A stretch of 32,000 nt of DNA, taken from positions 21,740 to 53,739 of the forward strand of contig JBHLMI010000018.1 in assembly GCA_048938295.1 (NCBI GenBank), read 5' to 3'. Shown here one piece after another: positions 120 to 30,514 of the stretch. The translations under genes and the position numbers were made by a program. The first letter of the stretch is position 1. Every line of letters begins with the position of its first letter. This DNA is from Promethearchaeota archaeon (GTDB taxonomy: Archaea > Asgardarchaeota > Hermodarchaeia > Hermodarchaeales > Hermodarchaeaceae). Under the pieces are notes generated by a model, which saw only the letters and a program-made list of their open reading frames with translations, was not told the DNA's origin and did no database searches.

Positions 120-695
120 TTGGCTGCCAAGCAGCTGCGACAAAATACCCTTGTACTCCCCGACCATCTTCGTCAATCACTCCAAGGACCGAAAGGCGAG
201 CTGTTCTCCCGAACAGACTTAGGCGCGGCAGAAGACGCTTGCGCTTATATTCGGAAACACAAGCTAGCTCCCGTCATCGCGGTTGGTGACTTGGTCTCGA
301 TTAATCTAGCGAAGGTCAACTGCCAAGCCACCCTGTCTATTCTGGATGGAAAAACAAAGCGCAATGATCCTGTGGAATTTTCCCTAACAACTGATGTCAC
401 CTTTACAGCAACAAATGCTGCTGCTGAAATTCGTCCTGAGGTATGGATTGCCATCGAACTAGCCCTCACTGCTGGTCAATCTGGCAAAACTGCGAAACTC
501 TTAATAGAGGGCGAAGAGGACCTAACGGCACTGCCCGCAGTGGCACTTGCACCCTCTGGCTCAGCCGTTGTATACGGGCTTCCCAATCAGGGCATAGTTG
601 TCATTAAGGTCGCGGCAGAGCACAAACAGGCAGTAAACGCAATCTTACAAGAAATGGTGCAAAAAGATGAAAATCAAAATCGAAGAGAAAAATGA
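120..695 (+). CDS. DUF359 family GTP-dependent dephospho-CoA kinase
   Basis: Motifs VIAVGDLVS, ILDGKTKR, IEGEEDLTALP and VVYGLPNQG. TTG start with GGTGA 5 nt upstream. Conserved synteny. Confidence 0.85.
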   Translation: MAAKQLRQNTLVLPDHLRQSLQGPKGELFSRTDLGAAEDACAYIRKHKLAPVIAVGDLVSINLAKVNCQATLSILDGKTKRNDPVEFSLTTDVTFTATNAAAEIRPEVWIAIELALTAGQSGKTAKLLIEGEEDLTALPAVALAPSGSAVVYGLPNQGIVVIKVAAEHKQAVNAILQEMVQKDENQNRREK

Positions 696-1137
696 CAATG
701 CGCTCCTTCAGCGTCAGGAAATTACTTTCTTAATTGATCATACGGGAACTGCGACACCTCCTCGCGTTGATGCCCGTGCAAAACTTGCTGCTATGCTGAA
801 TTGCAAAGAAGATCAACTCTATATCATTAAACTTGTTGGACAATATGGCCAATCCATCTCTCAGGGCTATGCTCATCTTTATCCTTCAAAAGAAGCTGCC
901 GAAACGCAAGAACAGACGTACATCAAAAAACGAAATGGCGCTGAAGAGGCTACACAGCCACCCGCCATGAAAGTAGCCAAACCTGCGGCCAAAGAGAAGA
1001 AAGAAGAAGCCCAAGAGGCATCAAAAGAAAAGGCTGAAAAGCCACTAGAGCCGCTTAAAAAGAAGGAAGATGAAAAGCCCAAGCGAGAAGAGGACAAAAA
1101 AGAGAAACCTCGGGCAGAGAAAAAGGAAGGGTCATAA
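667..1137 (+). CDS. rps24e: 30S ribosomal protein eS24 with a long Lys/Glu-rich C-terminal tail
   Basis: N-terminal about 90 aa match eS24 (NALLQRQEI, TPPR, GYAHLY). Synteny with rps27ae. Confidence 0.9.
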   Translation: MKIKIEEKNDNALLQRQEITFLIDHTGTATPPRVDARAKLAAMLNCKEDQLYIIKLVGQYGQSISQGYAHLYPSKEAAETQEQTYIKKRNGAEEATQPPAMKVAKPAAKEKKEEAQEASKEKAEKPLEPLKKKEDEKPKREEDKKEKPRAEKKEGS

Positions 1138-1170
1138 TTCGATTCAAGAATTAATAAAAGGTGAAATCCG

Positions 1171-1353
1171 ACGACAAAGACACACAAATATTACTCTGTT
1201 GGAAAGGATGGAAAACTCGAACGTAAACGCAGGTCATGTTCACGCTGCGGTGAAGGCACCTTCATGGCAGAACATGCCAATCGGTTCCACTGTGGCCGTT
1301 GTGGGTTTACAGAATATAAGCCCTCAAAGAAGAATGAGGGGAAAGAAACTTAG
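1171..1353 (+). CDS. rps27ae: 30S ribosomal protein eS31 (S27ae), probably ACG-initiated; not in the ORF track
   Basis: Reads (M)[59 protein letters not shown], with a C4 zinc finger. An in-frame TGA at 1162-1164 leaves no ATG/GTG/TTG before the conserved part. The start coordinate is inferred from SD spacing. Confidence 0.9.
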
Positions 1354-1438
1354 ACACGACGACCCACTTACACTTTGGTGGTTTATCAGGGTCACGTCAT
1401 GTGGCACATAACTTGTTTTTAGGTGTGGTTAGGTCAAG

Positions 1439-2425
1439 ATGGTTGTTCTAGGTATTGAAAGCACAGCACATACCTTCGGTATCGGTATAGTAGATAGCAC
1501 AGGTCAAATTCTCGCCGATGTAAAGGCGGTATATTCTCCCCAAGAAGGTGGGATTCATCCTCGAGAAGCAGCCGAACACCATCAAGTCTATGCACTACAT
1601 GTGTTATCTGAAGCATTCACTCGGGCTAAGATTTTCCATAATCAGGTGAATGGAATCGCGTTTTCACAGGGACCTGGTCTTCCTCCTGCACTTCGTGTAG
1701 GTGCCGTTTTTGCACGGAGTCTTGCTACAAGCCTTGGCGTTCCTCTAGTCGGTGTCAATCATTGTGTTGCCCACATCGAACAGGCTCGGTTCTTCACAAA
1801 AGCCGACCACCCGCTAGTTATCTATTTATCTGGTGGAAATACACAAATAACTACGCTGATAGCACAGCGGTATCGAATTTTCGGGGAAACTTTAGACATC
1901 GCTTTGGGTAATATGCTTGATATGTTTGCTCGGGAAGCGAATCTGAAACACCCTGGTGGACCAAAAATCGAGCAACTAGCCCTTCAAGCGAAGAATGGCT
2001 ATCACGAACTACCATACACGGTGAAGGGTATGGACCTGGCTTTTTCCGGATTGTTAACAGCGTCAAAGCAGCTGCTTTCACAAGGCGTTTCCCTTGAAGA
2101 AGTCAGCTATAGCCTTCAAGAAACGGCGTTTTCAATGATAGCTGAAGTAACTGAGCGAGCCTTAGCCCACACACAACGAAAGGAACTGATAGTCACTGGA
2201 GGAGTTGCAGCCAATGCCCGGCTCAAGGAAATGCTCCAAATCGTAGCAGAAGAGCAATCGGCTCGATTTGCCTCAGTTCCCCGAAAATACGCTGGGGACA
2301 ATGGATCTATGATTGCATACAACGGCTTGCTCCTCCTTCAAGCAGGTAAACGAACCGCCATCTCTGAAAGCCGAACCCAACCTAAATGGCGTCTTGATCA
2401 GGTCGATATACCGTGGGGGGCGTGA
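1439..2425 (+). CDS. kae1: KEOPS catalytic subunit Kae1/TsaD (t6A transferase), stand-alone
   Basis: LGIESTAHT, GGIHPREAAEHH, NHCVAHIE, LSGGNT, GETLDIALGN, GDNGSMIA. Confidence 0.97.
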   Translation: MVVLGIESTAHTFGIGIVDSTGQILADVKAVYSPQEGGIHPREAAEHHQVYALHVLSEAFTRAKIFHNQVNGIAFSQGPGLPPALRVGAVFARSLATSLGVPLVGVNHCVAHIEQARFFTKADHPLVIYLSGGNTQITTLIAQRYRIFGETLDIALGNMLDMFAREANLKHPGGPKIEQLALQAKNGYHELPYTVKGMDLAFSGLLTASKQLLSQGVSLEEVSYSLQETAFSMIAEVTERALAHTQRKELIVTGGVAANARLKEMLQIVAEEQSARFASVPRKYAGDNGSMIAYNGLLLLQAGKRTAISESRTQPKWRLDQVDIPWGA

Positions 2426-3684: not shown

Positions 3685-3752
3685 GATTCCTGCTCTCCGG
3701 TGCTTAGCGTCTAAGAACCTATTGAAGCAGGAATCTCTCATCACCTTGGTGA
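3685..3752 (+). promoter_or_regulatory. Structured leader/inverted repeats upstream of rps15
   Basis: GATTCCTGCT (3685-3694) is the exact reverse complement of AGCAGGAATC (3726-3735). Inner CTTAG/CTAAG stem. TCAC-CTTG-GTGA hairpin (3741-3752) over the SD. Confidence 0.45.
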
Positions 3753-3758
3753 AATCTA

Positions 3759-4214
3759 ATGGCTCGAATGCATTCCCCTCGAAAAGGAAAATCTCATTCC
3801 AAACGTCCAATCCGCCTCGAAACTCCTGATTGGTGTCAACGGACACCAGAGGAAGTTGAAGAGCTCGTAACTACGCTAGCCAAGGAAGGTCATCAACCCT
3901 CCATGATTGGGTTAAAACTCCGAGACCAATATGGGATTCCCCTAGTGAAGGCGATCACCGGTAAGACCATTACTCAGATTCTTAATGAAAATGAGCAATC
4001 ATTACGCGTACCTGAGGACCTTTTCCATCTCATTAGTCGAGCCGTTACTCTGCGAAGGCACCTTGAAGATGCGAAAAAGGATTTACACTCTCAATACGGA
4101 CTTCGATTAATTGAGAGTAAAATACGACGCCTAGTGAAATATTACCGTCGACAGGGTGTTCTCCCTCAAGACTGGAAATACACGCCAGAGCAAGCTGCGC
4201 TCCTCATTCGCTAG
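3759..4214 (+). CDS. rps15: 30S ribosomal protein uS15 (S15/S13e)
   Basis: [44 protein letters not shown]. Confidence 0.98.
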
Positions 4215-18711: not shown

Positions 18712-18987
18712 ATGGGACGAACGAAAAAAGTAGGCACTGCAGGGCGCTTTGGTGCCCGGTACGGTGTTACCATCCGTCAGCGTGTCGCAAAGATTGAGGC
18801 TAATATGAAGGTATTGCACAAGTGTCCTAGCTGCCAAACGAAGGCAGTACGCCGCGTGTCAACAGGCATTTGGAGCTGCCGCAAATGCGGATATACCTTC
18901 ACCGGTGGAGCCTATAGCCCTGCCACGGACGCCCAGAAGATACTCCGCTCTTTCCGTGAACGCTCGGCTAGCCGGCGAACAAAGTGA
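18712..18987 (+). CDS. rpl37ae: 50S ribosomal protein eL43 (L37ae)
   Basis: [34 protein letters not shown]. Confidence 0.97.
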
Positions 18988-28291: not shown

Positions 28292-30514
28292 ATGAAGGAA
28301 GCCCGGAAAAGGTCCGGCCTTCATATCGTGTATGCAATAATAGGTCTAGCAATCCTGCTCAATGGAATAGTTGCGCCATTTCCATTCAGCAATCTACACG
28401 GTAGTCCATCTCCTCAAACTCTGACCTCTTATTGGCTAATTTACTTTCTTGATACTGGATTTCACCTCCCCCTTAAGGCGATGCAAACACCGATAGATCA
28501 AGCAACTCCTTTTGCGCAATTAAGTTGGATGCAACACCATAGTTGGCAAAACTGGGATAGTCGAACAACGTTTGGTGTAACCATTGAACAGGGGTTGCTG
28601 CAAAGAGAAATTTTGAATTTTACTCAAATTACGCCTGAACCCATCCAGGTAGTCGTAGAAGATTATGATCCTGCCAGTTGTCCCTTTGAAGATTATATAT
28701 GGACAGATGAAGAATCATACATGGGCTTTCGCATTAATGGCTCTGATCCGGTACGTGTTGATGGTTTTTGGATATACCTTCGAGGCGAATCGCAAGGAAT
28801 CTTCCGGTACCGCGTGTATGGAGCTCAACCTGGAACTAGTGCGGCCACATTTGTTAACACCTCTGCTCCACTTACCGACTGGATTGAAGTACCGATATCG
28901 CCAACCCTCGAACCAGGCGATGAATACTGGTTTTGGATCAACACCAATGAAACTGAGCTAGTACTCAATCCCCTTGAAACCTATACTAACACCTTTTATT
29001 TTGGACTTGCTCGCGCCTTTGGAGCCACAACTGATACCCGAATTAACTGGGTATACTGTCGGGATGATGCAAATCCCGATGAAGAAGATGAGGGCGACTG
29101 CTATGGGCGTTTCGGCTCATGGTCTTATCGAACCCGCGATCTCTTCCTCAACGTGTCGATACTGCCCTACAATCATTACGTTTACCCAACAGAGATTGAC
29201 ATGAAAGTAAATGGCAATATTATTCGCGATCTTAGTTCCCCCGCACATGGAGTGTGGGACAGTGAAACGTATCAGCCCCCTCTTCAAATCAATGGTGCTC
29301 CTCGCGAATACCACGTTATGGTGATCTGGCCAGGCTTTTATCAATGGCCGGTTCGGTTCGATGTACAATGGGCTGGTACTTTCCTTGATGAAATTTCCAT
29401 CTTCTCGGGACCGAGTTATGGCTATTTAGACGTGAACTGGGTAGTCACAATGATAGTTGATTTTCCTCCTGACATCGGCAATCAAACCATACTCCTCAGT
29501 CTTCCGCTTGATTGGACAGCCATACGAATCACTCGCAACACCCTCGATTATAGCGAATGGATACTAAACGATACACTTCTGTGCATCACGAATGCAGAAG
29601 ATGGGCTCTGGCATGTGTACTGTAGTATTCCCATGTCTCCCTTGATACTCTATGGGGGGCTACTTTTCTGGATCGCGTTCTTTATCATTTTAGCCCTTTT
29701 AATATCCTTCATGTTTTATCACCAGAAAATCTTCTTACCTCAACAGCGCCTTTACCGCCACCGGCTCCAAGCGCTGGTTGATTCATTCAATGATATTCAC
29801 AAAATACGACGAATACTGGTAATCCATAAGGAAACCGGTCTGTGCTTACTTGATCCAATCGTCGATCACAAAATGAGAGCTAATTTAGTAAGTGCTCTAA
29901 TTCAAGCCATCACCGCCTTTGGCGTAAACCTCACTGAAACCGAAGAGACGGCGGATCTAATTGATGATACGGCTTCACTTCAGCAAATCACCTATCGGGA
30001 CTTCCATATCATCGTCCATGATGGCCAATACACACGTAATGCTCTCATTTTCAAACAGCCCCCCAGTAGCCTGATAGATAAACGCCTGGCAGAATTTACC
30101 CTGCGCTTTGAGGAACGATACCAGGATGTGCTTGAAAACTGGGTCGGGCGATTAAACATCTTTGGCGATGCCATCGATCTGGTTGACGAATACCTGTTCA
30201 TTTCCCTGCGATTGCCTCACACTCTATACTCCGATCAAGTTACTATCTCGTCGCTTTCTCAATCAGAACGCGTTCTTTATGAGCAAGCGAAAAATCTCAA
30301 TGCGGACGGCAGTAACTTCTTCATTAGCGAGTTAGTCGATCACTATCTCCGTGAAAAAGGGGTAGACCGAATCGAGGTATTTGACGCCCTGTTCAAGTTA
30401 AGAGAAAAAGGAATTATTGTCCCTATTCACACAGAAATTCCGTACGAATTTAGCAGCAATGCTGTCTTGAATAACGGACCTGGATTACCGGCGCATCCAG
30501 GTAACCGTGCCTAA
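28292..30514 (+). CDS. Receptor-like membrane protein: signal/TM, large ectodomain, TM, longin-like domain, C-terminal winged-helix-like domain
   Basis: Hydrophobic aa about 9-30 and 451-476. Aa about 505-636 read ILVIHKETGLCL..NLVSALIQAITAFG..QITYRDFHIIVHDGQY..ALIF..L.EF..RFEERY...L..W.G, a longin-like pattern recalled from Asgard proteins. Terminal LSQSERVLY..FISELV..VFDALFKLREKGII. Confidence 0.7.
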   Translation: MKEARKRSGLHIVYAIIGLAILLNGIVAPFPFSNLHGSPSPQTLTSYWLIYFLDTGFHLPLKAMQTPIDQATPFAQLSWMQHHSWQNWDSRTTFGVTIEQGLLQREILNFTQITPEPIQVVVEDYDPASCPFEDYIWTDEESYMGFRINGSDPVRVDGFWIYLRGESQGIFRYRVYGAQPGTSAATFVNTSAPLTDWIEVPISPTLEPGDEYWFWINTNETELVLNPLETYTNTFYFGLARAFGATTDTRINWVYCRDDANPDEEDEGDCYGRFGSWSYRTRDLFLNVSILPYNHYVYPTEIDMKVNGNIIRDLSSPAHGVWDSETYQPPLQINGAPREYHVMVIWPGFYQWPVRFDVQWAGTFLDEISIFSGPSYGYLDVNWVVTMIVDFPPDIGNQTILLSLPLDWTAIRITRNTLDYSEWILNDTLLCITNAEDGLWHVYCSIPMSPLILYGGLLFWIAFFIILALLISFMFYHQKIFLPQQRLYRHRLQALVDSFNDIHKIRRILVIHKETGLCLLDPIVDHKMRANLVSALIQAITAFGVNLTETEETADLIDDTASLQQITYRDFHIIVHDGQYTRNALIFKQPPSSLIDKRLAEFTLRFEERYQDVLENWVGRLNIFGDAIDLVDEYLFISLRLPHTLYSDQVTISSLSQSERVLYEQAKNLNADGSNFFISELVDHYLREKGVDRIEVFDALFKLREKGIIVPIHTEIPYEFSSNAVLNNGPGLPAHPGNRA

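Follow-up and report, generated by a model that had tools for sequence, protein, structure and literature searches.

The window, a stretch of DNA of 32,000 nt, belongs to a genome of Ca. Hermodarchaeota, which makes the Asgard label of the sequence-only reading more precise; the nearest genomes include Ca. Hermodarchaeum yapensis. It contains a cluster encoding S24e, eS31/S27ae, Kae1, Bud32, a HAM1-type NTPase and S15. The conserved archaeal neighbourhood rpoE-S24e-S27ae-kae1 is present here, with Rpo7 adjoining upstream on the contig, and the gene order is that of the archaeal cluster with S24e-S27ae-Kae1 (PMC10833476). The upstream neighbour of eS31 in this cluster is rps24e (eS24; 667..1137, plus strand; PF01282, 87 bits), and the downstream neighbour is kae1, encoding the tRNA t6A synthase (1439..2425, plus strand; PF00814, 259 bits); the rps15 (S15) ORF lies further downstream (3759-4214, plus strand) and matches PF08069 and PF00312. 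At 2313-2430 the frames of Kae1 (1439-2425) and Bud32 overlap or abut as separate ORFs, with no fusion, and the likely start of Bud32 is an ATG near 2433 (MSQLLAKGAE...).

Between S24e and Kae1, eS31 occupies an intact open frame of 62 codons (1165-1353, plus strand), which reads TGA (1162-1164) AAT CCG ACG (1171-1173) ACA AAG and so on to TAG (1351-1353). The frame matches PF01599 with 71 bits (cut-off 22.3) over profile positions 1-44 of 44, and encodes a C4 zinc ribbon (CSRC...CGRC). It is closed upstream by the in-frame TGA, itself part of a Shine-Dalgarno (SD) motif AGGTGA (1159..1164, plus strand), while the earliest in-frame ATG, GTG or TTG comes only after the first CxxC, at the Met of FMAEH, so that no canonical start yields an intact zinc ribbon. 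The sequence-only reading from which this work started had described the same intact frame, the same upstream stop and the same lack of any ATG, GTG or TTG up to the zinc finger, and the profile match and the reading of the frame bear it out. The proposed initiation codon is the ACG at 1171..1173 (plus strand), 6 nt past GGTGA, from which the coding sequence would extend over 1171..1353 (plus strand; 60 codons plus TAG). No second copy of eS31 exists in the 2.5-Mb genome.

The motif AGGTGA is complementary to the 16S rRNA 3' end GGATCACCTCCT (contig C48), and ahead of eS31 the alignment of the 17 species that have the gene shows no variation in AAGGT and almost none in GGTGA. Throughout this genome, GGTGA followed by 5-7 nt stands ahead of first-in-frame starts of the canonical kinds (90 ATG, 32 TTG and 27 GTG); TTG is a frequent start codon across the genome. 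Within the window the comparator for SD spacing is the start region of rps15 (3748..3761, plus strand), where ggtgaaatc-ta-ATG equals the ggtgaaatc-cg-ACG of eS31 (1160-1173) in nine nucleotides and in spacing. The match had been noted before and is exact, although its AATC part is a coincidence because it is not conserved in relatives, which keep the SD core and the spacing only; the identity past the SD motif was therefore dropped as a meaningful signal. The 9-mer ggtgaaatc occurs three times in the window against 0.34 expected, the third copy (28458-28466, minus strand) being antisense within a long plus-strand ORF, where it starts nothing. No conserved RNA structure was found round the eS31 start by RNAalifold (0 pairs) and single-sequence folding (z = +1.08), and an A-rich, unstructured start region fits an accessible site. 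A promoter of its own for eS31 in the A/T-rich stretch 1150-1159 was also considered and dropped, this stretch not being conserved in relatives.

The class Hermodarchaeia is represented by 19 species genomes, which fall into two genera of a single family, and the eS31 gene is present in 17 of them, with all zinc ligands retained in 17/17. The codon homologous to 1171-1173 is ACG in 12 of the 17 species and ATG in the other five, with no other codon found; several studies and several assemblers lie behind these genomes, and the species are related, so that these counts are not independent of one another. In all 17 the ACG and ATG codons share a single alignment column, 5-6 nt past (A)GGTGA, which places ACG in the start register as had been proposed for this genome. 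The first and third bases at this register are invariant and the middle base is only C or T, while the codons that follow vary freely (ACA, TCA, CCA or AAA, then ACT, ACC, CCA, CCC or CCT). In 9 of the 12 ACG species no canonical in-frame start exists from the upstream stop to the conserved domain.

The same codon was found outside the species genomes. Hermod-type eS31 loci on JGI and other metagenome contigs have ACG in 10 of 11 cases and ATG in one, and for two species identical eS31 start regions were recovered from three or four independent assemblies each, from separate samples. In a set of another 166 eS31 loci, which covers Hermod-type sequences along with other Asgard classes, Bathyarchaeia, Methanomassiliicoccales and further groups, only the 15 Hermod-type loci are without a canonical start, and all 15 have ACG; about 140 eS31 loci from other archaea have a canonical start in every case. 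Some of the non-Hermod eS31 proteins (Asgard loci L021 and L023; metagenome loci L040, L042 and L043) carry long N-terminal extensions rich in Lys, Arg and Glu; these occupy tens to over 100 residues before the zinc ribbon and are reminiscent of eukaryotic eS31, with its N-terminal extension or fusion.

These data bear on the simplest alternative, also raised in the sequence-only reading, namely that position 1172 carries a C only through an error of sequencing or consensus, the true codon being ATG. One change at that base, a T misread as C, would suffice, and five related species do have ATG; however, ACG recurs in 12 species genomes and in 10 independent metagenome contigs, including near-identical ones from different samples, and was seen at no non-Hermod eS31 locus. 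Rather than a singleton among relatives with ATG, the codon is the prevailing state of the class, and since it is found in so many independent assemblies a consensus error is excluded for the class; for position 1172 itself we give it next to no chance. Initiation at ACG is, by contrast, the reading that the comparison favours.

The frame might also be entered without an ACG start, by read-through from S24e, by a frameshift from the GTG within GGTGA, or by reinitiation at another codon. Here S24e and eS31 share a frame and the TAA stop of rps24e lies only 33 nt before the ACG, while in species G007 and G017 a spacer shorter by 1 nt brings the GTG of GGTGA in frame. Nevertheless, two stops (TAA and TGA) separate the S24e and eS31 frames in this genome, and the spacers differ among species by lengths that are not multiples of three (26 nt in G003, for example), so that neither the shared S24e frame nor the GTG frame is conserved; nor is any other start-like triplet conserved near the eS31 start. 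Entry of this kind is thus highly improbable as an account of the class. In species G002 a GTG directly precedes the ACG, and in G002, G007 and G017 a canonical start is therefore formally available, which counts against the reading of ACG as the start codon.

A further possibility is that the ACG species carry eS31 as a pseudogene in decay, its protein being dispensable or replaced, as the absence of a canonical start and the silence of gene callers might suggest. The frame is, however, open in every species, without a second copy and with the zinc ligands all kept, and dN/dS among the ACG species has a median of 0.08, at a median dS of about 1.5, i.e., with synonymous sites saturated. Such values indicate that eS31 is expressed and subject to strong purifying selection, and decay of the gene is exceedingly improbable. 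They also bear on the codon itself: of the Thr codons in this genome ACG is the least used (14%), and ACA, ACC and ACT are absent from the eS31 start register in all species with the gene, so that at this degree of synonymous saturation the G of ACG is held by a constraint other than the coding of Thr. The ACG codon is thus conserved beyond what its amino-acid meaning would need. Overall, a working eS31 gene whose initiation codon is the ACG at 1171-1173 is the likely reading of this locus, and we hold it with good, though not complete, confidence.

On a species tree built from S24e, Kae1 and Bud32, the backbone of which is poorly resolved, about five changes between ACG and ATG are needed (fair range 4-5), and the species with ATG are scattered over the tree. 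Of the sister species G003 and G004, the closest pair, the former has ATG and the latter ACG, behind an identical ggtgaactctg. To take ACG as the ancestral state of the class would be the more parsimonious reading, though not a proven one.

Two other core genes of the class, both on the contig that continues upstream of the window, present a similar picture. Rpo7 (rpoE'; contig C9:21010-21612) lies some 730 nt ahead of the window and lacks a canonical start; the codon 7 nt past GGAGG is ATC in 14/14 gene-bearing species of the genus and ATT, CTG and ATT in the sister genus (loci L187-L203), and reading Rpo7 from this codon places the beginning of the SHS2 domain at residue 9. Three species have an ATG two codons upstream of it, only 1 nt past GGAGGC. 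For Cbf5 (contig C9:3315, some 18.4 kb ahead of the window), the codon in the start register, 9 nt past GGAGG, is CTG in seven species, GTG in ten and ATG in one (loci L210-L227), the DKCLD domain running from residue 4, and the CTG species are exactly the well-supported clade that holds this genome. The start state of Cbf5 thus shifts between GTG, CTG and ATG within one class; the cbf5 gene has an intron that introduces a stop, and the comparison of this gene rests on a shorter piece of it. The putative registers of Rpo7 and Cbf5 are supported by where their Pfam domains begin, and with eS31 at least three core genes of the class are, to judge from these registers, placed on near-cognate codons.

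Such starts are the exception and not the rule in this genome: a crude genome-wide scan (SD motif, 5-9 nt, then the codon, first in frame and followed by a long open frame) found ACG and other near-cognate codons behind SD motifs at background level, without excess. Pervasive near-cognate use was accordingly dropped as a claim. Nine further ACG candidates from the scan look like noise, with the exception of one long ORF on the minus strand of contig C35, where GGAGG and 7 nt precede an ACG at 18810 that opens a 394-codon frame, whose first canonical start comes 48 codons later; this ORF could be a further gene with an ACG start, or a transposase-like one read in the wrong register.

The near-cognate codons of Rpo7 and Cbf5 also help in judging whether the eS31 mRNA could be edited from C to U, ACG becoming AUG. 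In plant chloroplasts, ACG start codons are restored to AUG by C-to-U RNA editing, and the eS31 pattern is like that of chloroplast genes in that a genomic ACG stands where relatives have ATG and the two toggle among lineages. Editing would explain why the register permits ACG and ATG only, and could likewise turn the CTG of Cbf5 into UUG. However, the chloroplast process needs organellar machinery not known in archaea, and we know of no description of C-to-U editing of mRNA in archaea. The ATC and ATT of Rpo7, moreover, cannot be converted to a canonical start by C-to-U changes, so that a second mechanism would still be needed. We consider editing very unlikely, and take ACG as the codon that is probably itself read.

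The steps of such a reading may be outlined as follows. AGGTGA would pair with the 3' end of the 16S rRNA and position the small subunit, so that the ACG, 6 nt downstream of the SD motif, would occupy the P site; ordinary Met-tRNAi (anticodon CAU) would then read ACG with a C·A mismatch at the middle base, and the product would be a 60-residue eS31 starting with Met. The initiator tRNA gene of this genome (C47:76913-76990) combines a normal anticodon (CAU) with the A1:U72 pair and an anticodon stem rich in G-C, and among the 20 tRNAs recovered with ARAGORN, an incomplete set, no special initiator tRNA was found, the normal CAU form being the only one. aIF1 is present in 17/19 genomes of the class, starts at ATG and is ordinary-looking, so that its loss or oddity was rejected as a source of permissiveness; by the same token an ordinary aIF1 does not explain permissiveness, and this counts against the ACG reading.

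In E. coli, initiation at ACG reaches 0.1-1% of that at AUG (10.1101/063800), and Sulfolobus aIF1 rejects non-cognate codons, AUU among them (PMC4705826). The weakness of ACG in the former and the stringency of the factor in the latter make a weak codon on a stoichiometric ribosomal protein surprising. Given the E. coli figure, we infer that this lineage would either be far more tolerant, or that its eS31 output would be deliberately low or compensated; the weak codon may conceivably tune that output, as the sequence-only reading suggested. The near-cognate codons of Rpo7 and Cbf5 suggest an initiation apparatus permissive enough for ACG, and very probably, on the comparative evidence, the ACG-bearing archaea of this class do start eS31 at ACG, their ribosomes presumably using the codon with Met-tRNAi. 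A bolder proposal would be that Hermodarchaeia, and perhaps Asgard archaea more widely, accept ACG, AUC/AUU and CUG much as eukaryotic ribosomes do, that the ACG of eS31 has been selected as a throttle or sensor coupling its synthesis to the state of the initiation machinery, and that ATG variants are recurrent but confined to shallow branches; we regard this proposal as speculative and, taken as a whole, unlikely.

Eukaryotic and viral ACG or CUG starts are read by Met-tRNAi, e.g., those of AAV VP2 and of the Sendai virus C' protein. The eS31 codon resembles them in lying in the start register and in being read, presumably, by a normal initiator tRNA with a middle-base mismatch, and archaeal aIF1, aIF1A and aIF2 are factors of eukaryotic type (near-cognate initiation in eukaryotes is reviewed in PMC4705826). 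In contrast to the eukaryotic cases, it is placed by Shine-Dalgarno pairing and not by scanning and Kozak context, and it would be the sole start of an essential ribosomal protein, class-wide, where the eukaryotic codons serve alternative isoforms. Bacteria provide a second comparison, with the AUU starts of infC (IF3) and pcnB (PMC4705826; PMC5499595). Like these, the eS31 start is SD-led, conserved, weak, located on a translation-related gene and mishandled by gene finders. The AUU of infC is tied to autoregulation, as IF3 discriminates against it, while eS31 is without a known link of this sort and aIF1 has an ATG start here. Nor are we aware of any evidence for a role of eS31 in the choice of start codons in archaea.

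With canonical archaeal SD-led initiation (PMC7531240) eS31 shares the SD motif, the spacing and the operon context of ordinary genes such as rps15, whereas its ACG stands outside the AUG, GUG and UUG that reviews give as the only archaeal start codons (PMC7531240, PMC4705826). Literature searches for ACG and other non-canonical starts in archaea, Asgard and Hermodarchaeota returned nothing relevant. Near-cognate initiation is in itself well known, in eukaryotes and, with AUU, in bacteria; its class-wide occurrence as ACG on an archaeal ribosomal protein appears, to judge from these searches, to be new. A class-wide ACG on an essential ribosomal protein, together with AUC, AUU and CUG on Rpo7 and Cbf5, would extend the set of archaeal start codons, and would do so among the archaea nearest to eukaryotes; in eukaryotes themselves, initiation at ACG and CUG is established. 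The sister-species pairs with ACG and ATG also provide natural variants with which archaeal initiation assays could probe the stringency of start-codon choice.

The consequences for annotation are more immediate. ACG is, as far as we are aware, not among the start codons of NCBI table 11, and callers limited to ATG, GTG and TTG lead to genomes of the class being scored as lacking eS31, as had been anticipated from this genome alone. In a collection of 5.8 billion proteins the Hermod-type eS31 entries derive from the ATG species only, with the addition of G002, whose protein was called from the GTG preceding its ACG; no other ACG species has a called eS31 there. Gene finders of this kind thus miss eS31 in most Hermodarchaeial genomes and truncate the other near-cognate genes, and calls missed or truncated in this way distort ribosomal-protein inventories, marker-gene sets and presence/absence comparisons among Asgard lineages. 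In the window, an ATG-started ORF of 113 codons in another frame (1070-1411, plus strand) runs over the end of S24e and all of eS31, and might be reported by a gene caller instead of eS31, as a spurious 'hypothetical protein'.
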